DNA of 29,595 nucleotides, taken from NCBI GenBank assembly GCA_963764715.1, contig CAVXTP010000004.1, positions 1 through 29,595 of the forward strand. The letters run 5' to 3'. Positions 16,277 through 29,595 of the stretch are shown here, piece by piece. Within the stretch, counting starts at the first letter, position 1. Every line of letters starts with the position of its first letter. The notes beneath the pieces are model-generated. The model was not told where the DNA came from. It made no database searches and saw only the letters and a program-made list of their open reading frames with translations. The stretch comes from an uncultured Acidobacteriota bacterium. Lineage in GTDB: Bacteria > Acidobacteriota > Thermoanaerobaculia > UBA5066 > Gp7-AA6. A program made the translations under genes and the position numbers.

Positions 16277-17029
16277 ATGCGCCTTCGCTCCTCGATCGCC
16301 GCCTTCGGGTTCCTGGCCGCGGCCGCTTCTCCGCTCCTCGCCGACGAGCTCGGCCACGCCCGGCCAAAGAGCTGGGGCACGACCTCTCAGACGGTCCTGA
16401 CGCTCGGCCCCTGCGACGCCGCGCAGCGGGACATGACGAATCCCTTCCAGGTCTTCGGTTGCGATTTCCTGACCGCGAAACAGCCCAACACGTTCAACTC
16501 GGCGGCTGCCGGGTTCCCGCTGCACCTGCCGGAAGGCGCACTGCTCGAGGAGGTCGACGTCTCCTACTACGACACCGTCAGCGGGTCCGAGCCGTTCGTC
16601 AAACTGATTCGCAAGGGCCCCGGACCGACGGACCAGATCCTTAACGATAACCTCCCGGTGTTCGAGTCGGGGGACAACCTGGCGGTCTTCGTCCTGAGTC
16701 CGCCGCGCGAAATCCACAACGACAACTTCATCTATGCCCTGAACCTGGACCTGGACACCGTCGACGCCACGCACTACGAGGGGCTCTACAACGTCTCGAT
16801 CCGCTACCGCCTCCAGGTCAGCCCGCCGCCCGAAACGGCGACGTTCGGGGACGTTCCGGCCGACCATCCGTTCTTCCAGTTCGTGGAAGCGCTGGCCGCG
16901 TCGGGGATCACCGCGGGCTGCGGGAACGGGAACTTCTGCCCCAACACACCGCTGACGCGGGGCCAGATGGCGGTGTTCCTGGCGAAGGCGCTCGGGCTGC
17001 ACTGGCCGAACTCTCAGTTGCCGAACTGA
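16277..17029 (+). CDS. Secreted protein with single C-terminal S-layer homology (SLH) domain (SLH-1)
   Basis: GGAGG RBS; signal peptide; C-terminal TFGDVPADHPFFQFVEALAASGITAGCGNGNFCPNTPLTRGQMAVFLAKALGL. Confidence 0.9.
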   Translation: MRLRSSIAAFGFLAAAASPLLADELGHARPKSWGTTSQTVLTLGPCDAAQRDMTNPFQVFGCDFLTAKQPNTFNSAAAGFPLHLPEGALLEEVDVSYYDTVSGSEPFVKLIRKGPGPTDQILNDNLPVFESGDNLAVFVLSPPREIHNDNFIYALNLDLDTVDATHYEGLYNVSIRYRLQVSPPPETATFGDVPADHPFFQFVEALAASGITAGCGNGNFCPNTPLTRGQMAVFLAKALGLHWPNSQLPN

Positions 17030-17081
17030 GGGGTCAGTCCTGATTCGTTGATTTCGCCCGCGGCGGGGAATCCCGCCCCGT
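17030..17081 (+). repeat. RAYT-associated site (variant) plus degenerate hairpin
   Basis: GGGGTCAGTCCTGATTCGTTGATTTCG (17030-17056) starts on the base after the SLH-1 stop; 25 bp identical to 16069-16093; followed by GCGGCGGGGAATCCCGCCCCGT. Confidence 0.88.
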
Positions 17082-20936: not shown

Positions 20937-20969
20937 AACCAAGTTTGGGGTGGGGCCGTCTTAGGCCGA

Positions 20970-21000
20970 CTGCGGGCGCCGAAGGGCGCCCGCAGGTTTT
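20970..21000 (+). terminator. Rho-independent terminator of nrdJ
   Basis: CTGCGGGCGCC-GAAG-GGCGCCCGCAG followed by GTTTT. Confidence 0.8.
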
Positions 21001-21036
21001 ACCTTTAGATCGACAGGCCGGCGAAACTCGACACGG

Positions 21037-21269
21037 CTCGCGGATCAGCGCTTCGTCGGACGCGACGCGGGCTTCCAGGCGAGGTGGAAGTGGTTCGTCA
21101 TCAGGCAGTAGGCGAGCAGGCGGACCCCGAACCGGTCGCGGCAACCGGCCAGCCGCTTCAGGAAGTCCTCGCGGTCCCGATCGCCGCTGAAGATGTCGCG
21201 ACGCTCGTTTCCGCGTGCGGTCACGTGGTAGACGGCCCCGGGGAACTCCAGTCGCGGCGGTCGCGGCAT
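21037..21269 (-). pseudogene. Internally deleted RAYT transposase
   Basis: First ~64 codons near-identical to 28583..29557 (through NHFHLA), joined out of frame to the C-terminal RLEARVASDEALIR. The deletion is 664 bp relative to the intact copy, at a GGCG microhomology (21078-21081; 28702 and 29366 in the intact gene). Confidence 0.9.
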
Positions 21270-21319
21270 ATCAAGGCGGCTCTCTCCTTGAATTGTCGCG
21301 AGCCGGTTGCTCGCACCTC

Positions 21320-21346
21320 CGAAATCAGCAAATCAAGACTGACCCC
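21320..21346 (-). repeat. RAYT-associated site, upstream end of the deleted RAYT
   Basis: CGAAATCAGCAAATCAAGACTGACCCC is the reverse complement of the consensus, 50 bp upstream of the ATG. Confidence 0.92.
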
Positions 21347-21372
21347 TCGTTGCCAGACCCCTCGCTGCACTT

Positions 21373-22191
21373 CTATTGGACCCAGTTCAAACCGAGGGCC
21401 TTGGCCAAGAAAACTGCCATCTGCCGGCGCGTCACCGGAGTGTCCGGACAGTAATTCCCGCCGCCGCATCCGGCCGTGATGCCCGAGTCGACCAGCGCCT
21501 CGATGTACTGAAAAGCCGGGTCCGACGTCGGAACGTCGTTGAACGTCGGCAACATCGGCGCCGGAGACACCTGGAGCGTGTAGCCGAATGAGACGCCGGC
21601 GAGCTGGAGCGTGTCGTCGCTGACGCCCCACCCAACCTCGACGAGGATCTTGAAGTTGAAGTTGTCCACCGTATATGGCGGAGGCACGAAACTCTTCGAC
21701 ATGCAGCCGCTGCCGGCCTCGGACGTGTACGTGTGATACGGGATGGGATCGCACTGGCCCAGGTAGTCGCAGATATAGACGTTGAAGAAGAGTCGGCCGC
21801 TACCATTGTTGTCGCAATAGTCGTACTCGATGATGGTCAAACGAGCGCCACCGGGCAGACGAGGGCTTCCGAAGAGGCGGGGTTGCCCACCGGTGACGTA
21901 ACGCCGATAGTCGTAGACCCCGAGCGCCGGGTTCCAGGTACTGGTGTAGTCGGTGCAGCCGGAGGCGCATGCGGTGTCGGGATCGAAATCCGAGGCCGGT
22001 ATGGTCTGCCAGACAGTCGTCGTCGTGCCGAAATTCGGTGCGGTATGGGCAGGGACACGCTTCGGCGCCCGAGACGGGCCGACGGCGACCGGGCCCGCCT
22101 TCGCGTCGCCAGGCGGTGCCTGGGCTCGACCGATCGCGAGGGCCGTTACCATGAAGACCGCGCAAAGAATCCCGACTCTCTGCCACTTCAT
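21373..22191 (-). CDS. Secreted single-SLH-domain protein (SLH-2)
   Basis: AAGGAGGT RBS; signal peptide; LPGGARLTIIEYDYCDNN; C-terminal TFNDVPTSDPAFQYIEALVDSGITAGC...TRRQMAVFLAKALGL. Confidence 0.9.
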   Translation of the reverse strand: MKWQRVGILCAVFMVTALAIGRAQAPPGDAKAGPVAVGPSRAPKRVPAHTAPNFGTTTTVWQTIPASDFDPDTACASGCTDYTSTWNPALGVYDYRRYVTGGQPRLFGSPRLPGGARLTIIEYDYCDNNGSGRLFFNVYICDYLGQCDPIPYHTYTSEAGSGCMSKSFVPPPYTVDNFNFKILVEVGWGVSDDTLQLAGVSFGYTLQVSPAPMLPTFNDVPTSDPAFQYIEALVDSGITAGCGGGNYCPDTPVTRRQMAVFLAKALGLNWVQ

Positions 22192-22292
22192 TGCGACCTC
22201 CTTCTCGGACCCGCTTTTGGCGGAGCGGAGGGTTTCCGACGCTATTGGCTCCAGTCTAATGCTGCGGAGGAGGATGCGACGCAGGAGAGGAT

Positions 22293-22430
22293 GGGGTCAG
22301 TCCTGATTTGCTAAGGGAATGGGGTCAGTCTTGATTTGCAGCAGAGGGCGGGGTGGGTCAGTCTTGAAATGCTGATTTCGGAGGGGCTGGTGCCCCTTGG
22401 GCGGGAAATCAGCAAATCAAGACTGACCCC
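22293..22430. repeat. Stack of four RAYT-associated sites
   Basis: Plus-strand copies at 22293-22312 and 22321-22339 (both truncated) and 22355-22380; minus-strand copy at 22405-22430; small hairpin AGGGGC-TGGT-GCCCCT between the last two. Confidence 0.92.
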
Positions 22431-22580
22431 AGGAGACTGGAAGCGCTCGCGATGGTGCGCGACCCGCTCGAGCTAGGCCTCGCGGTCCCGATCGTCCCGA
22501 AAGATCGCGCGGCGCTCGTTGCCGCGGGCGGTAACGTGGTACAGGGCCCCCGGGAACTCGAGTCGCGGTGGTCGTGGCAT
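22431..22580 (-). pseudogene. 5' fragment of a more diverged RAYT
   Basis: MPRPPRLEFPGALYHVTARGNERRAIFRDDRDREA*LERVAHHRERF; in-frame TAG at 22473-22475; ends at the site at 22430. Confidence 0.88.
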
Positions 22581-22662
22581 CTCCGCTCCGAACGACCGCG
22601 AACGATGCGGGACCTCCACTCAGAGATTGTCGCGAGACGGCTGGAAGCGGAGAGCGCGCCGG

Positions 22663-22689
22663 CGAAGTCAGGAAATCAAGACTGACCCC
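22663..22689 (-). repeat. RAYT-associated site upstream of the RAYT fragment
   Basis: Reverse complement reads GGGGTCAGTCTTGATTTCCTGACTTCG. Confidence 0.9.
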
Positions 22690-22702
22690 TCAGCACCCTC
22701 CG

Positions 22703-23320
22703 TTACCACTGTAGGCCCAGCGCCTTGGAGAGGAAGACGGCCATCTGGCCGCGTGTGACGGGGCTGTTGGGACAGAAGAGGCCGGAGCCGCACCCGCCAG
22801 TGATCCCCGCCGCCACGAGCGCCTCGATGTACTGGAAGAACGGATTGCTCGTGGGTACGTCGCCGAACGTCGGGGTTTCCGGAGCCGGAGACACCTGAAG
22901 CTTGTAACCGAGAGAGACGCCACCGAGCTGGAGGGTGTCGTCGCTGACGCCCCACCCGGCCTCGATGAGAATGCTCGAGCTGAGGTTGTCCACCGTATAC
23001 GGCGGAAGATCGAATAAGACAGCGGCACACCCTTGGCCGGCGATGGACGTGTAAGTGTGATACGGGTTCGAATCGCACTCCGAAAAGTGGTTGCAGATGT
23101 AGACGTTGAAGGTGAGCCGACCGCTTCCGCTTCCATTGAAGTCGCAATAGCGGTACTGGATAGCCGACACGAGAGCGCCCGCGGGCAGACGGGGGCTCGC
23201 GAAAAGGCGGGGTTGGCCACCAGTGACGTAACGGCGGTAGGCGTAGTTGTTTAGCGCAGGGTTCCAGGTACTCGTATAGTCCGTGCAGCCCGAGGCGCAT
23301 GCGGTGTCCGGATCGAAGTC
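22703..23320 (-). pseudogene. 5'-truncated SLH protein (SLH-3), close paralogue of SLH-2
   Basis: Aligns with SLH-2 from DFDPDTACASGCTDYTSTWNPAL onward; no signal peptide. The upstream part of ORF 22703..23461 is read-through of the site and the RAYT remnant. Confidence 0.85.
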
Positions 23321-23338
23321 GAGCCTGGGCAAGGGAAT

Positions 23339-23450
23339 GGGGTCAGTCTTGATTTGCTGAGTTGGCGGAGGAGGCGGTGGCTCGGGTTGGATTTGAGGCG
23401 GCGGCCGAGGCGGTCGAACTGCCGGATGAACGCGTCGTCGGACGTGAGGC
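23339..23450 (-). pseudogene. RAYT 3'-end remnant including its terminal site (site on + strand, 23339-23365)
   Basis: GGGGTCAGTCTTGATTTGCTGAGTTGG is the same variant as at 28581. 23400-23450 aligns with ~28640-28692 (LTSDDAFIRQFDRL versus LASDEALIRQLDRL). Confidence 0.85.
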
Positions 23451-23672
23451 ATCAGTGTCATCGCCAGACAGCTTTGGGGCCAATCTGGATTCCTGTATTG
23501 CTCGCGGACCGGCCTCGGTACGCAGTTCTCCGGCAGAACCGCAAACGCGGTTCGCCTCTAGCTGGTGAAGACAGGAGCACGCGGTCAAGCCTGGCATCCT
23601 GACCGCATTCTTCACAAGAACTGATCCAGTTGAATCAGGCCAGCCCAGCGGGGAGGCGCAACACTCACGCAG

Positions 23673-24032
23673 ATGAAGCTGAAGATGAATCCGTCTCGAT
23701 GGCCGCTTCTCTCGTCGTTGCTGGCGCTGAGTTGCAGTTCTCATGTCCTGACTGCCCCTACCGGCCCGCTCTGTGGAACCTGCGACCTTGGCTCGCCAGC
23801 TGCCCGGAAGGCTGGCAAGATCGTAATCACCGAGGACATGGCGGCGGTGTCGGGCTGCACGCTAATGGGAACGGTCGGCGGTTGGGAAGACTTAGACAAA
23901 AAGAATGGTGCCTACGCCCTCGCGGTTAAGAACCACGCTTACGACCACGGTGCCGACCCCATGATTCGGGTTCTCTTTGTCAACGGTGGAGATGACGAGG
24001 CTTACCTCTGCCCATCCGCCCCTACGAATTGA
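23673..24032 (+). CDS. Hypothetical exported protein, possible lipoprotein
   Basis: 119-aa ORF with a hydrophobic N-terminus ending LLALSC; visibly more A/T-rich than the core genes; stop 31 bp before a site. Confidence 0.55.
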   Translation: MKLKMNPSRWPLLSSLLALSCSSHVLTAPTGPLCGTCDLGSPAARKAGKIVITEDMAAVSGCTLMGTVGGWEDLDKKNGAYALAVKNHAYDHGADPMIRVLFVNGGDDEAYLCPSAPTN

Positions 24033-24063
24033 CTCCAGGGCTTAGCCGGACCTCCTCCGGGAC

Positions 24064-24199
24064 GGGGTCAGTCTTGATTTGCTGCTTCGGGTTGTTTAGC
24101 TCGCGGCTTAGACTCGGCGAATCCCTGAGTCCAGAAGAATGGGAGGTTCAGGGAATGGGGTCGAGGGGAAATGGGGTCAGTCCTGATTTGCTGATTTCG
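24064..24199 (+). repeat. RAYT-associated sites
   Basis: Copies at 24064-24090 and 24173-24199; head-only remnant AGGGAATGGGGTC at 24150-24162. Confidence 0.9.
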
Positions 24200-24827
24200 G
24201 GTTGAGCCGGGGTGCCCCTGTCAGTAATCGCTCCACTGAAGTCCCAGGGCCTTCGCGAGAAACACCGCCATCTGCCGCCGCGTCAACGGAGCATCGGGAC
24301 AATAGTTGCCGCCAGCGCACCCGGCGGTGATGCCCGACGAATAGAGCGCCTCGATGAACTGGAAGGCGGGATCCGACGTCGGCACGTCGCCGAAGGTTGG
24401 CGTGGCCGGAGCCGGCGAGACGTCGAGCTGATAGCTGACGATGGCGCCGCCCAGAACGACAGACCCGTCTCCGGCGCCAAAGGCCAGCGAGAGCCCGTAG
24501 ATTTTGTGGTAGTTGTCGATCCGCAAGCTCAGCGTGTTGTCTGCCACGAAGCTACAGCCGTTGTTCGTTGAATCGACCTCGACGACATCCGTGCAGTTCA
24601 GCGCCTGGTTGTCGCACTCCCGAAGAGTCAGATACAGGTGACTCGCGGGATTGTTGTCGCAATAGTCGAGCTCGACGCGCCGAACGACGGATCCTCCTGG
24701 CAGATGAAGCGCCGCCGCCCAGAGGGACCCGTTCACCGACGGATAGCGTGTGAGCCCGCCCGCGGACTTCCAGTCTCCGGCGAGACCCGACTGGAGAGGG
24801 ACGAACTCCATCGCCGCGACGCGCACG
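24172..24827 (+). repeat. 656-bp direct duplication of 27743-28398
   Basis: Constant offset of 3571 bp; I find one mismatch (24494 C versus 28065 T, synonymous Gly). Confidence 0.92.
24221..24827 (-). pseudogene. 5'-truncated copy of SLH-5 (SLH-4)
   Basis: Protein identical to SLH-5 from RVAAMEF onward; lacks the first 43 codons, including the signal peptide. Confidence 0.88.
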
Positions 24828-24844
24828 GCGGTTAGCAGAGGAAT

Positions 24845-25017
24845 GGGGTCAGTCTTGATTTGCTGATTTCAGGGAGTTGCGGAGGCGGGCGATCTGCGAA
24901 TACGAAATGCGGCCGAAAGGCGGCTGCTCCGCCGGGCCATGTATGGCCGCCAGGGGATGCGCGTGACGGTTTTGGGGTCAGTCCTGATTGGCCGATTTGG
25001 AATGGGTAGGGTCAGTC
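24845..25017 (+). repeat. RAYT-associated sites
   Basis: Copies at 24845-24870 and 24974-24998; partial GGAATGGGTAGGGTCAGTC at 24999-25017. Confidence 0.88.
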
Positions 25018-25262
25018 GAGAAATGTCAGGTTCGAGATTCCCGCTGGGAGCGTCGTGAATCAGGTCACGGTGGGGGATCCAGGGGCCGCCAGGCAAGACG
25101 GGAGGGTCCTAAATCTGAGAGGCCCAGTGCCGATCTGAAATGCTCGACGGCGGAGGGAAGGTGTGACAGATCGAGCGGCGCACGTCCCCTGTCATCGCCT
25201 GAGCCCCGGGGCACCCAGTCAAGCTCCAATTGCCCCATTCGGTTCGTCCAGGCTCCCGGAAC

Positions 25263-25288
25263 GGGGTCAATCTCGATTTGCTGATTCG
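25263..25288 (+). repeat. RAYT-associated site (degenerate)
   Basis: GGGGTCAATCTCGATTTGCTGATTCG preceded by GGAAC. Confidence 0.8.
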
Positions 25289-25398
25289 CCCGCTCGGATC
25301 GGCGAGTTCTCGGATGGCGCTTTCGATCTGGCTGCGCAGAGCCGGGTCGGTGTCGAGCGGATGTTCGAGGAGTCTGACCGGTCCGACGAAGGAACCCT

Positions 25399-27562: not shown

Positions 27563-27770
27563 GGGGTCAGTACTGATTTTGCTGACTTCGGGGCCGCGAC
27601 CGGGCAGCCAAGAAGTTCCCGATGACCGCCGCCGGCGGCGTGCCGCGACGTCTTCCCGATCAGCTTCTCGAACCGCGTGAAGGAACGGGGTCAGTCTCGA
27701 TTTGCTGGTTCAGGGAATGGGTAGGGTCAGTCTAACGGGGGCTGGGGTCAGTCCTGATTTGCTGATTTCG
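27563..27770 (+). repeat. Cluster of RAYT-associated sites
   Basis: Copies at 27563-27590, 27687-27707 and 27744-27770; partial AGGGAATGGGTAGGGTCAGTCT at 27712-27733. Confidence 0.9.
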
Positions 27771-27791
27771 GGTTGAGCCGGGGTGCCCCTG

Positions 27792-28526
27792 TCAGTAATC
27801 GCTCCACTGAAGTCCCAGGGCCTTCGCGAGAAACACCGCCATCTGCCGCCGCGTCAACGGAGCATCGGGACAATAGTTGCCGCCAGCGCACCCGGCGGTG
27901 ATGCCCGACGAATAGAGCGCCTCGATGAACTGGAAGGCGGGATCCGACGTCGGCACGTCGCCGAAGGTTGGCGTGGCCGGAGCCGGCGAGACGTCGAGCT
28001 GATAGCTGACGATGGCGCCGCCCAGAACGACAGACCCGTCTCCGGCGCCAAAGGCCAGCGAGAGTCCGTAGATTTTGTGGTAGTTGTCGATCCGCAAGCT
28101 CAGCGTGTTGTCTGCCACGAAGCTACAGCCGTTGTTCGTTGAATCGACCTCGACGACATCCGTGCAGTTCAGCGCCTGGTTGTCGCACTCCCGAAGAGTC
28201 AGATACAGGTGACTCGCGGGATTGTTGTCGCAATAGTCGAGCTCGACGCGCCGAACGACGGATCCTCCTGGCAGATGAAGCGCCGCCGCCCAGAGGGACC
28301 CGTTCACCGACGGATAGCGTGTGAGCCCGCCCGCGGACTTCCAGTCTCCGGCGAGACCCGACTGGAGAGGGACGAACTCCATCGCCGCGACGCGCACGTG
28401 CGTGAGATTGGAAGTGCCGAAGTCCGCGGCCTTTGGATCCTGCACGACCCCGGATGGCTGCGCCGACATCTTGACGGCAAGACAACACAGCATTGCAAAA
28501 AGCGATCCGAGGCGCATGGTTCGCAT
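27792..28526 (-). CDS. Secreted single-SLH-domain protein (SLH-5)
   Basis: AGGAG RBS; signal peptide; LPGGSVVRRVELDYCDNN; C-terminal TFGDVPTSDPAFQFIEAL...TRRQMAVFLAKALGL. Confidence 0.9.
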   Translation of the reverse strand: MRTMRLGSLFAMLCCLAVKMSAQPSGVVQDPKAADFGTSNLTHVRVAAMEFVPLQSGLAGDWKSAGGLTRYPSVNGSLWAAALHLPGGSVVRRVELDYCDNNPASHLYLTLRECDNQALNCTDVVEVDSTNNGCSFVADNTLSLRIDNYHKIYGLSLAFGAGDGSVVLGGAIVSYQLDVSPAPATPTFGDVPTSDPAFQFIEALYSSGITAGCAGGNYCPDAPLTRRQMAVFLAKALGLQWSDY

Positions 28527-28580: not shown

Positions 28581-28605
28581 GGTCAGTCTTGATTTGCTGA
28601 GTTGG
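28581..28605 (+). repeat. RAYT-associated site overlapping the RAYT stop codon
   Basis: GGTCAGTCTTGATTTGCTGAGTTGG; its reverse complement encodes NSANQD-TGA. Confidence 0.92.
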
Positions 28606-29557
28606 CCGGGAGGGCGTCAGCCGGGTGCGCGGACCTTAGGTGGCGGACGAGGCGGTCGAGCTGGCGGATCAATGCTTCGTCGGACGCGAGGCGGGCTTCC
28701 AGGCGCGCGAGAGGGCGGGTGAAGCTCGAGTCGTCGCGATGGAGCCGGCGGGCCATCCGGCGCACCGAGATGCGCCCGAAGCGGCGGCCGACGTAAGCGG
28801 CGAGGCACCGCGCGAACGCGACCTCGCCTCCTCGACCGGGTCCGGCGAGAGCGGCAGCGCTGATCCCGGTCTCGTGCGCGACGGCCTCCAGGACGCGGTC
28901 CTCGGTCAGGCCGAGGATCGGTGGATCGAGCTCCCCGGCGGCGGCGAATCGCTCGACTGCGAACGCCTCGTCGCCCACGACGGCCTGGGCGATGGCGGGC
29001 AGCTCGTCGGTGGCCGCCAGGCCGTCGACCAGCTCCACGTATCGCGCGACGGCGGCGCGGCGATTCGCGCCGAGCGCGGCCAGGGTCTCGTCGACATCGA
29101 GCCATCTCGGGCCGCGCGCGCGGCGCAGGTGACGGTCGCTCGACCAGGGATAGTCGCAGGCGCGGCGGGTGATCCCGGCACGCACGGGGTTCTGATGGAC
29201 GTAGCGGATGAGAGCCTGAAGGTACCGGTCCTCCTGGACGAGGCGGGACTTGTATCGACCCTGGAACAGATGGCCCACCCGGGCGTACCGGCGGTTGAAG
29301 AGCTGAGCATACGAGGACTGGAGGCAGGCCATGATCCTCGACAGCGGCGTCGCCGCGGTGCGAAGGGCGAGGTGGAAGTGGTTCGTCATCAGGCAGTAGG
29401 CGAGCAGGCGGAACCCGAACCGGTCGCGGCAACCAGCCAGCCGCTTCAGGAAGTCCTCGCGATCCCGATCGCTGCGAAAGATGTCGCGGCGCTCGTTTCC
29501 GCGAGCGGTCACGTGGTAGACGGCCCCGGGGAACTGCAGACGCGGCGGTCGCGGCAT
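28583..29557 (-). CDS. Y1 HUH transposase of the RAYT/TnpA-REP type with DnaA-domain-IV-like C-terminal HTH
   Basis: MPRPPR...YHVTARGN, AYCLMTNHFHL (HUH), GHLFQGRY, RYVHQNP (catalytic Tyr helix), YPWSS; C-terminal VLEAVAHETGIS...ARCLAAYVGRR...ISVRRMARRLHRDDSSF resembles Bac_DnaA_C. Confidence 0.92.
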   Translation of the reverse strand: MPRPPRLQFPGAVYHVTARGNERRDIFRSDRDREDFLKRLAGCRDRFGFRLLAYCLMTNHFHLALRTAATPLSRIMACLQSSYAQLFNRRYARVGHLFQGRYKSRLVQEDRYLQALIRYVHQNPVRAGITRRACDYPWSSDRHLRRARGPRWLDVDETLAALGANRRAAVARYVELVDGLAATDELPAIAQAVVGDEAFAVERFAAAGELDPPILGLTEDRVLEAVAHETGISAAALAGPGRGGEVAFARCLAAYVGRRFGRISVRRMARRLHRDDSSFTRPLARLEARLASDEALIRQLDRLVRHLRSAHPADALPANSANQD

Positions 29558-29595
29558 ATCAAGGCGCCTCTCTCCTTGAATTGTCGCGAGCCGGT

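Follow-up and report, generated by a model that had tools for sequence, protein, structure and literature searches.

A probable TIRtron on an acidobacterial contig: a RAYT-like transposase gene with a DnaA-like C-terminal domain, its terminal inverted repeats and their copies

The window analysed here is the whole of contig C4 (29,595 bases), from a 4.36-Mb assembly of an uncultured Acidobacteriota bacterium in 26 contigs. It very probably contains a TIRtron that has been inherited in place: a TIRYT gene, which encodes a RAYT-like (REP-associated tyrosine transposase) HUH/Y1 nuclease with a C-terminal domain like DnaA domain IV, framed by its cognate terminal inverted repeats of ~27 nt. At least three decayed copies derived from the gene lie next to it, and its repeat has multiplied as solo, tandem and outward-doublet copies, almost all of them at this one locus. 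The element is an ordinary member of the known TIRYT/TIRtron class, and its inverted-repeat layout has been in print since 2010-2013.

The intact gene encodes a protein of 324 aa, with the HUH motif at H60/H62 and the catalytic tyrosine at Y119. The protein matches Pfam Y1_Tnp (2.9e-14) and passes the NCBIfam model for REP-associated tyrosine transposases (REP_Tyr_transpos; 85.9 bits, cut-off 80). Pfam Bac_DnaA_C reached 28 bits on the window protein alone, under its cut-off of 31.5, and a single-sequence search of solved structures with the same protein gave no match at E up to 0.01. A profile of 29 homologues matched E. coli TnpA-REP (4ER8) over the N-terminal part (3.8e-7) and DnaA domain IV (2HCB/1L8Q) over the C-terminal part (5.7e-7). 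H60, H62, Y119 and N123 were invariant in the alignment of these homologues. Foldseek was run on the AlphaFold (AF2) model of the protein (mean pLDDT 87.3). The best structural match of the N-terminal domain was 4er8_A (TMt 0.73), followed by the ISDra2 and IS608 transposases, and the C-terminal domain matched box-bound DnaA DNA-binding domains (3pvp_B, TMt 0.90, root-mean-square deviation 1.5; 1j1v_A, 0.85). Residues 313-324, some of which are encoded by the repeat, have pLDDT below 50, are predicted to be disordered and are unconserved among the 29 aligned homologues. Judged from its sequence, the window gene is intact and catalytically complete.

The first-pass annotation of the window had placed the stop codon of this gene inside a copy of the repeated site, and the reading frame confirms it: the reverse complement of 28583-28606 reads ANSANQD followed by TGA, and the last seven codons and the stop lie within the site copy that forms the 3' repeat. 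The TGA is the complement of the TCA within the repeat head. Two paralogues in the same genome, C6:495318-496274 and C7:33483-34445 (46% and 48% identical to the window protein respectively), each have their own inverted repeat pair with the GGGGTCAG head, and the stop codon of each is the TGA within CTGACCCC. With their repeats, they make up two intact TIRtrons of this genome (C6:495253-496277 and C7:33419-34448). The stop lies in CTGACCCC in all nine acidobacterial genes examined, namely the window gene, the C6 and C7 paralogues, and L001, L002 and L093-L096, from the related genomes G001 and G002 (the window's own genome being G000). We infer that the stop within the repeat reflects compact packing, common among insertion sequences (IS), and no separate mechanism; this is the simplest account because the complement of the head contains TGA and the added residues form a disordered tail. 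Insertion-sequence transposases often have their stop in or near the right inverted repeat.

At the 5' side, the 38 nt of leader retained in the window differ from 21270-21307, the leader of decayed copy A, at one of 38 bases, and both broken 5' ends (copies A and B) have a site in the opposite orientation upstream, all as first annotated. L001, an orthologue with 95% identity located on a 910-kb contig in G001, has the site predicted for the DNA past the contig end, at the same distance from the leader as in decayed copy A. The intact gene presumably has such a 5' repeat in this organism too.

The first-pass annotation had read the unit as site, gene and inverted site, with GGGGTCA heads facing outward like terminal inverted repeats, and had proposed that homologues be compared. 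This layout was found in the C6 and C7 paralogues, in four further acidobacterial genes and, among homologue loci from many phyla, in 31 of the 37 long forms (at least 250 aa, with usable flanks) compared to 7 of the 36 short forms. These loci, the 80 top-ranking tblastn matches from a pattern scan, form a biased sample; flanking inverted repeats were counted at a score of at least 17 (shuffled controls reached at most 13), and 9 loci with an incomplete gene or flank were left unscored. The overlap of stop and cognate site extends beyond the nine acidobacterial genes: of the 31 repeat-flanked long forms, 19 have their stop within the repeat, and in 13 the stop is the TGA of the head. The consensus GGGGWSAS was fitted strictly by 15 of these 31, and the heptamer GGGTCAG was common to 23 of 36 repeats. 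Co-variation of site and protein was also borne out. Identity over the inner 20 nt of the repeat was 0.39 between proteins less than 35% identical, 0.67 at 60-80% and 0.90 above 80% (Spearman 0.32, a value reached in 0 of 2000 label permutations), a trend driven largely by closely related pairs. Every TIRYT paralogue of this genome has a repeat family of its own, and repeat and protein sequences vary together.

One judgement of the first-pass annotation, that this layout is unexpected for an HUH enzyme, has to be withdrawn. Nunvar et al. 2010 (PMC2817692) describe RAYT genes as always lying between two inverted REPs that co-evolve with them. Di Nocera, De Gregorio and Rocco 2013 (BMC Genomics 14:522; PMC3733652) describe RAYT-like genes with inverted repeats that are neither hairpins nor REPs, and name them TIRYTs and TIRtrons. 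They give the head consensus as GGGGWSAS and report the repeats as moderately abundant, occurring as singles, dimers and clusters. They also single out an Acidobacteria group and note three TIRYT genes with different repeats in Koribacter, and the legend of their Figure 9 uses the code 3'ov for repeats overlapping the 3' end of the gene. Quentin, Siguier, Chandler and Fichant 2018 (BMC Genomics 19:475; PMC6006769) equate TIRYTs with TnpA-REP subclass 2.1 and describe subclass 2.1.2 as a long Y1 protein with a C-terminal Bac_DnaA_C-like helix-turn-helix and no canonical REP near the gene; in their discussion of the repeat head, it is unlike a DnaA box and the role of the domain is left open. 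RAYT groups are also treated by Bertels et al. 2017.

Compared to these descriptions, the window element has a RAYT-like protein with HUH motif and catalytic tyrosine, long inverted flanking repeats without a GTAG hairpin, a head (GGGGTCAG) that fits GGGGWSAS, and a moderately abundant repeat family present as singles, dimers and clusters. Its genome holds three co-resident genes with different repeats, as described for Koribacter. For the flanking repeats, the 3' copy was read directly, and the 5' side was read from L001 and from both decayed copies. The element differs from the published cases in that all three genes here have repeat families (22, 38 and 82 copies), compared to only one of the three described in Koribacter, and in that the copies of the window's own type (C4-type) are almost all at one locus; nothing essential differs. 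By description it belongs in subclass 2.1.2, with a long Y1 protein, no canonical REP close to the gene and a Bac_DnaA_C-like tail, seen with the family profile and with 3pvp_B although the single-sequence Pfam score is under the cut-off. The enzyme is better named TIRYT than RAYT because its sites are not REP hairpins.

With up to 3 mismatches allowed, the window contains 16 matches to the 21-nt site core (13 on the plus and 3 on the minus strand), compared to 0.00 expected from 100 shuffles. The GGGGTCAG heads of the terminal inverted repeats face outward, and this head is present at 21346, 22689 and 23339 and in most solo copies (Table 1). Decayed copy A joins 230 nt of the 5' end of the gene (95% nucleotide identity, including the leader to 21307) to ~46 nt of its 3' part (91%). 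Remnant C, which carries the GAGTTGG variant that the first-pass annotation had noticed at 23339, contains a transposase part that reads on the minus strand with 82% identity and replaces the N-terminal part of the adjoining SLH gene (open reading frame 22703-23461). Read in the minus-strand direction, the intact gene and its 3' repeat come first, ahead of an SLH-domain gene, two sites, the PhoD gene and a site-rich stretch. Remnant C comes next; it has its 3' repeat and is fused to a second SLH gene, which is truncated at the N-terminal side. Beyond it lie a 5' repeat and copy B, four clustered sites and a third SLH gene, and last a 5' repeat, copy A and a ribonucleotide reductase gene. The locus reads as an old tandem amplification of a unit formed by the transposase cassette and an SLH gene, followed by decay.

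Table 1. Features of the TIRtron and of its repeat copies on contig C4 (window positions).
Feature	Position	Strand	Remarks
Intact TIRYT gene	28583..29557	-	N-terminal HUH/Y1 RAYT-like nuclease and C-terminal DnaA-domain-IV-like helix-turn-helix
3' terminal inverted repeat of the intact gene	28581..28605	+	Encodes ANSANQD and TGA; outer head degenerate; GAGTTGG variant in the tail
5' leader of the intact gene	29558..29595	-	Ended by the contig end; contains CTCGCGACAAT at 29580-29590
Decayed copy A	21036..21269	-	Internal deletion; premature stop; start ATG at 21269
5' terminal inverted repeat of copy A	21320..21346	-	50 nt ahead of the ATG; head intact (GGGGTCAG)
Decayed copy B	22434..22580	-	First 49 codons only (73% aa identity); in-frame stop; ATG at 22580
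5' terminal inverted repeat of copy B	22663..22689	-	82 nt ahead of the ATG
Remnant C	23339..23450	+	3' repeat at 23339-23365 (GAGTTGG variant, plus strand), then ~85 nt of the 3' end of the transposase gene
Outward-facing doublet	22355..22429	.	Two sites, hairpin-capable; fold -30.3 kcal/mol, z -8.3
Two tandem sites	22294-22342		Beside the doublet
Five solo sites	24065..25284	+	At 24065, 24174, 24846, 24975 and 25264
Two solo sites	27688..27765	+	At 27688 and 27745, between the SLH and PhoD genes; conserved at the orthologous G001 locus
Diverged solo site	17031..17051	+	3 mismatches; immediately after the SLH-family gene 16277-17029
656-nt duplicate of 27743-28398	24172..24827	+	1 mismatch; includes a site and an SLH gene truncated at its 5' end

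The contig has five small paralogous genes that encode a single C-terminal SLH domain (16277-17029, 21373-22191, 22703-23338, 24221-24826 and 27792-28526). Two of them are N-terminally truncated, and in all five a C4-type site lies no more than ~50 nt from the stop. SLH-domain genes are very numerous in this genome. The idea that they are dedicated cargo of the TIRtron was rejected, as ~25 full-length paralogue matches in other parts of the genome lie more than 400 nt from any C4-type site. The left edge of the 656-nt duplicate coincides with the outer G of a site head, and its right edge lies within the SLH gene, with another site 17 nt further on; this is one event, and the match of its edge with a repeat head is beyond statistical test. 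A search of the whole window against Rfam gave no family at gathering score.

Across the genome, we counted 22 C4-type copies, 38 copies of the C6 paralogue's type (on 10 contigs) and 82 of the C7 paralogue's type (on 20 contigs), with 0 matches to the reversed-pattern controls. Sixteen of the C4-type copies are on C4 and 2 are near the end of C26; in G001, the DNA syntenic with that contig end lies 7.8 kb upstream of the orthologue, so that 18 of 22 belong to one locus. The clustering is similar in the related genomes, with 12 of 13 C4-type copies within 13 kb of the gene in G001 and 6 of 6 within 9 kb in G002. C4-type copies include tandems and 2 outward doublets. Most of the larger C7-type family is made up of outward doublets that form hairpins, with a common length of 67 nt measured from core start to core end. 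All 28 of its neighbouring pairs face outward and 0 face inward; they are bounded by G (26/28) and C (27/28), and the commonest spacer is 25 nt (11/28). The spacers of 9 of the 28 doublets contain a TCGCGA-type motif that is also present in the cassette leader. None of the 28 is flanked by a direct repeat of 4 nt or longer. Seven site groups on contig C17 (six containing doublets, one solo) were compared with the related genomes in search of empty sites. Three of the seven were anchored in G001 and none in G002; the anchored groups held a diverged doublet, a degenerate doublet or a different insertion, and there was no clean empty site among the seven from which to define a target sequence.

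The gene itself has kept its place. The stretch from the TIRYT gene through the SLH gene to PhoD is 97% identical between G001 and the window, the orthologues in G001 and G002 have similar surroundings, each with a ribonucleotide reductase gene close by, and syntenic orthologues of the C6 and C7 paralogues are present in G001 and/or G002. That the C4, C6 and C7 genes are all syntenic in related genomes argues for vertical inheritance of the TIRYT genes. The interval from PhoD to the class II ribonucleotide reductase gene is unalignable between the window and G001 except for site copies and one 188-nt SLH fragment. It measures ~4.3 kb in the window (20937-25398) and ~3.5 kb in G001 (L080 13681-17183, L081), and is site-rich in both; G002 also has site copies between the transposase gene and the reductase gene.

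G002 contains a fourth cassette, L095 (2945-4003, ~1.06 kb), at a place where the DNA is uninterrupted in G000 (C7:~50840) and in G001 (L097). On the right, the cassette edge and the CCCC end are at most 1 nt apart; at the left junction, ~20 nt differ. This TIRtron sits just 5' of the conserved TTACAATTG. Its presence in G002 and absence from G000 and G001 mean that whole cassettes behave as discrete units at least occasionally.

Several points weigh against the reading of the region as a TIRtron inherited in place. The presence or absence of L095, whether gain or loss, makes the picture of a stationary gene less clear, as it suggests that an entire cassette can also move or disappear. In the 3' repeat of the intact gene, the head is CCGGTCAG and departs from the canonical GGGGTCAG at two bases, so that this end of the cassette may have ceased to act as a substrate. 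As the contig stops 38 nt upstream of the ATG, the intact gene shows only its 3' bounding copy. The best of 20 public metagenome runs contains 0.42 of the sampled words, and four runs placed on the contig end gave short contigs that did not usefully extend the intact copy: one contig reaches 5 nt past 29595, and those showing a site beside the leader carry the flank of decayed copy A and not that of the intact gene. No other contig end in the assembly holds the missing 5' piece. By synteny with G001, the C4 end at 29595 faces the C26 end at 86345 across an unassembled gap of up to ~7.8 kb, and the repeats probably broke the assembly between these two ends. The clustering of the C4-type copies could come from duplication and recombination instead of transposition. 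Tandem 7-9-mers were detected at p < 0.05 in 10 of 32 repeats (Fisher combined 1.8e-7) and in 0 of 4 further repeats, and the window's own site gave p = 0.12 for a tandem direct repeat; with such uneven support (10 of 36 repeats), tandem boxes were rejected as a universal feature of the repeats. As to activity, no TIRYT biochemistry was found in the open literature searched.

An alternative with some claim to attention, although we consider it unlikely, is that the whole cassette (repeat, gene and repeat, ~1.05 kb) is an autonomous IS still moving as one unit, and that solo sites and doublets are its deletion derivatives, similar to miniature inverted-repeat transposable elements (MITEs). L095 favours this reading, with uninterrupted DNA in G000 and G001 and a right edge within 1 nt of the CCCC end, but it could be a gain or a loss and its left junction is unclean over ~20 nt. 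The decayed extra copies beside the intact gene (at least three), the doublets oriented outward like cassette ends (28 to 0) and the leader motif of the TCGCGA type in 9 of 28 doublet spacers also favour it. On the other hand, each genome has one intact copy per repeat type, the paralogues are only 46-51% identical, which indicates no recent copying, the C4-type gene has the same kind of neighbours in three genomes with C6 and C7 syntenic too, and the 3' repeat head of the window cassette is mutated.

The cassette also differs from two known kinds of IS. IS200/IS605 elements have different, non-inverted subterminal hairpins at their two ends and are cut on one strand. Their transposases (IS608 and ISDra2 TnpA) share the HUH/Y1 fold with the window protein, and both systems have repeat-bounded units without target-site duplication. 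Here, however, both ends are inverted copies of one sequence; instead of distinct end hairpins, no terminal inverted repeats and, usually, several near-identical copies, we found inverted non-hairpin ends and paralogues 46-48% identical. The target-site duplication of DDE-type IS and MITEs was found in 0 of 28 doublets of the sister C7-type family; the C4-type has two doublets only.

It is improbable that the sites are immobile, operator-like targets of the DnaA-like domain, serving autoregulation or the regulation of the adjacent SLH surface-protein genes and multiplied by ordinary duplication and recombination. The concentration of 18 of 22 copies at one locus, many just downstream of SLH-family genes, would fit this, as would the rearrangement of the PhoD-ribonucleotide reductase region between related genomes, the 656-nt segmental duplicate that carries a site along, and the C-terminal domain, which by its modelled fold would be a double-strand DNA binder. 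But the HUH motif and the tyrosine are invariant across the family and needless for pure regulators. The copies of the sister families, spread over 10 and 20 contigs, form discrete units whose ends are sharp and whose orientation follows a fixed rule, and the ~25 full-length SLH-family paralogue matches elsewhere lack such sites within 400 nt.

E. coli TnpA-REP/RAYT (4ER8), with its REPs and BIME/REPIN doublets, shares with the window system the N-terminal domain, inverted cognate repeats that co-evolve with the protein, hairpin doublets and a single-copy, vertically inherited gene; here, by contrast, the single site has no hairpin and no GTAG, the protein has an extra DnaA-like domain, and copies number tens compared to hundreds. 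Three single C4-type sites folded as single-stranded DNA were no better than shuffles (z -0.9, -1.5 and 0.0), no GTAG was found in C4-type sites, and the family is far from the dispersed abundance of classical REPs (more than 100 per genome). A classical REP/RAYT system, in which the enzyme reads a hairpin in each single site together with a 5' GTAG-type guide tetranucleotide, is very hard to sustain: the NCBIfam model, 4ER8 as the best structural match and the inverted repeats flanking the gene as described for RAYTs speak for it, but the fold test contradicts it, there are 22 copies and not hundreds, 4ER8 (165 aa) lacks the DnaA-like domain, and the same genome shows the classical form in a separate short RAYT-like gene. 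That gene (C17:16419-16937) is a 172-codon open frame, 26% identical to the window protein and flanked by GTAG-plus-palindrome repeats.

For the TIRtron inherited in place, a mechanism in three steps can be proposed. Recognition would fall to the DnaA-like domain, which would read the variable inner repeat sequence, probably in double-stranded form, for example in the stem of a single-strand fold-back. The conserved HUH core would then cut at or next to the conserved head, at the foot of the fold-back. Units bounded by repeats would be copied without target duplication, most plausibly as single-strand hairpin units, as proposed for REPINs, and a unit might move in the 'peel and paste' manner known for IS200/IS605. 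This model would fit because the head is conserved, the inner part tracks the protein, the protein has a DnaA-like domain, the doublets face outward, fold back and are bounded by G and C, and target duplication is absent.

A more specific version, which we offer tentatively and regard as doubtful, is that each repeat is a two-part, origin-like site. The HUH core would cut the GGGGTCAG head, and the DnaA-like domain would read the lineage-specific inner part, often 2-3 tandem 7-9-mers, as duplex. The outward fold-back hairpin would be the moving form; one strand would be cut at the hairpin foot, and pasting would leave no target duplication. Run-on copying from a repeat head into flanking DNA would make the TIRtron a local shuffler of cell-surface SLH cassettes. 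Copying of flanking DNA is suggested by the 656-nt SLH segment, whose start coincides exactly with a head. The arrangement resembles that of the Rep proteins of adeno-associated virus (AAV) and geminiviruses, which bind tandem repeats beside their nick site.

What this material adds to the published class are three co-resident paralogues with their own repeat families, 9 of 9 stops in CTGACCCC, 28 of 28 pairs facing outward, a case of cassette presence and absence, and local clustering. It serves the question of how a single-strand-specific HUH enzyme handles two inverted ends. The genome is a compact natural experiment, with three intact TIRYT paralogues, distinct repeat families that differ in size and dispersal, and a classical short RAYT with GTAG repeats, to which the two related genomes add orthologues and one presence/absence case. 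Specificity swaps among the three systems would show which part of the repeat and which protein domain set recognition.

Some minor observations concern the DNA ahead of the genes. A search by eye only for a sigma-70-type promoter split between repeat and leader showed no consistent spacing. Two to five tandem copies of the 5' repeat lie ahead of the gene in the homologue loci L019, L010 and L058. The TIRYT leaders of L003, L006, L021, L031, L037 and L072, four of which are labelled Elusimicrobia/Elusimicrobiota, share GGAAC(TTTTT) and CGTAT separated by ~16 nt, which we take to resemble an ECF-sigma-type promoter. Instead of this pattern, the acidobacterial leaders share CTCGCGACAAT, which is present, or represented by a near variant, in the leaders of the other acidobacterial genes examined.

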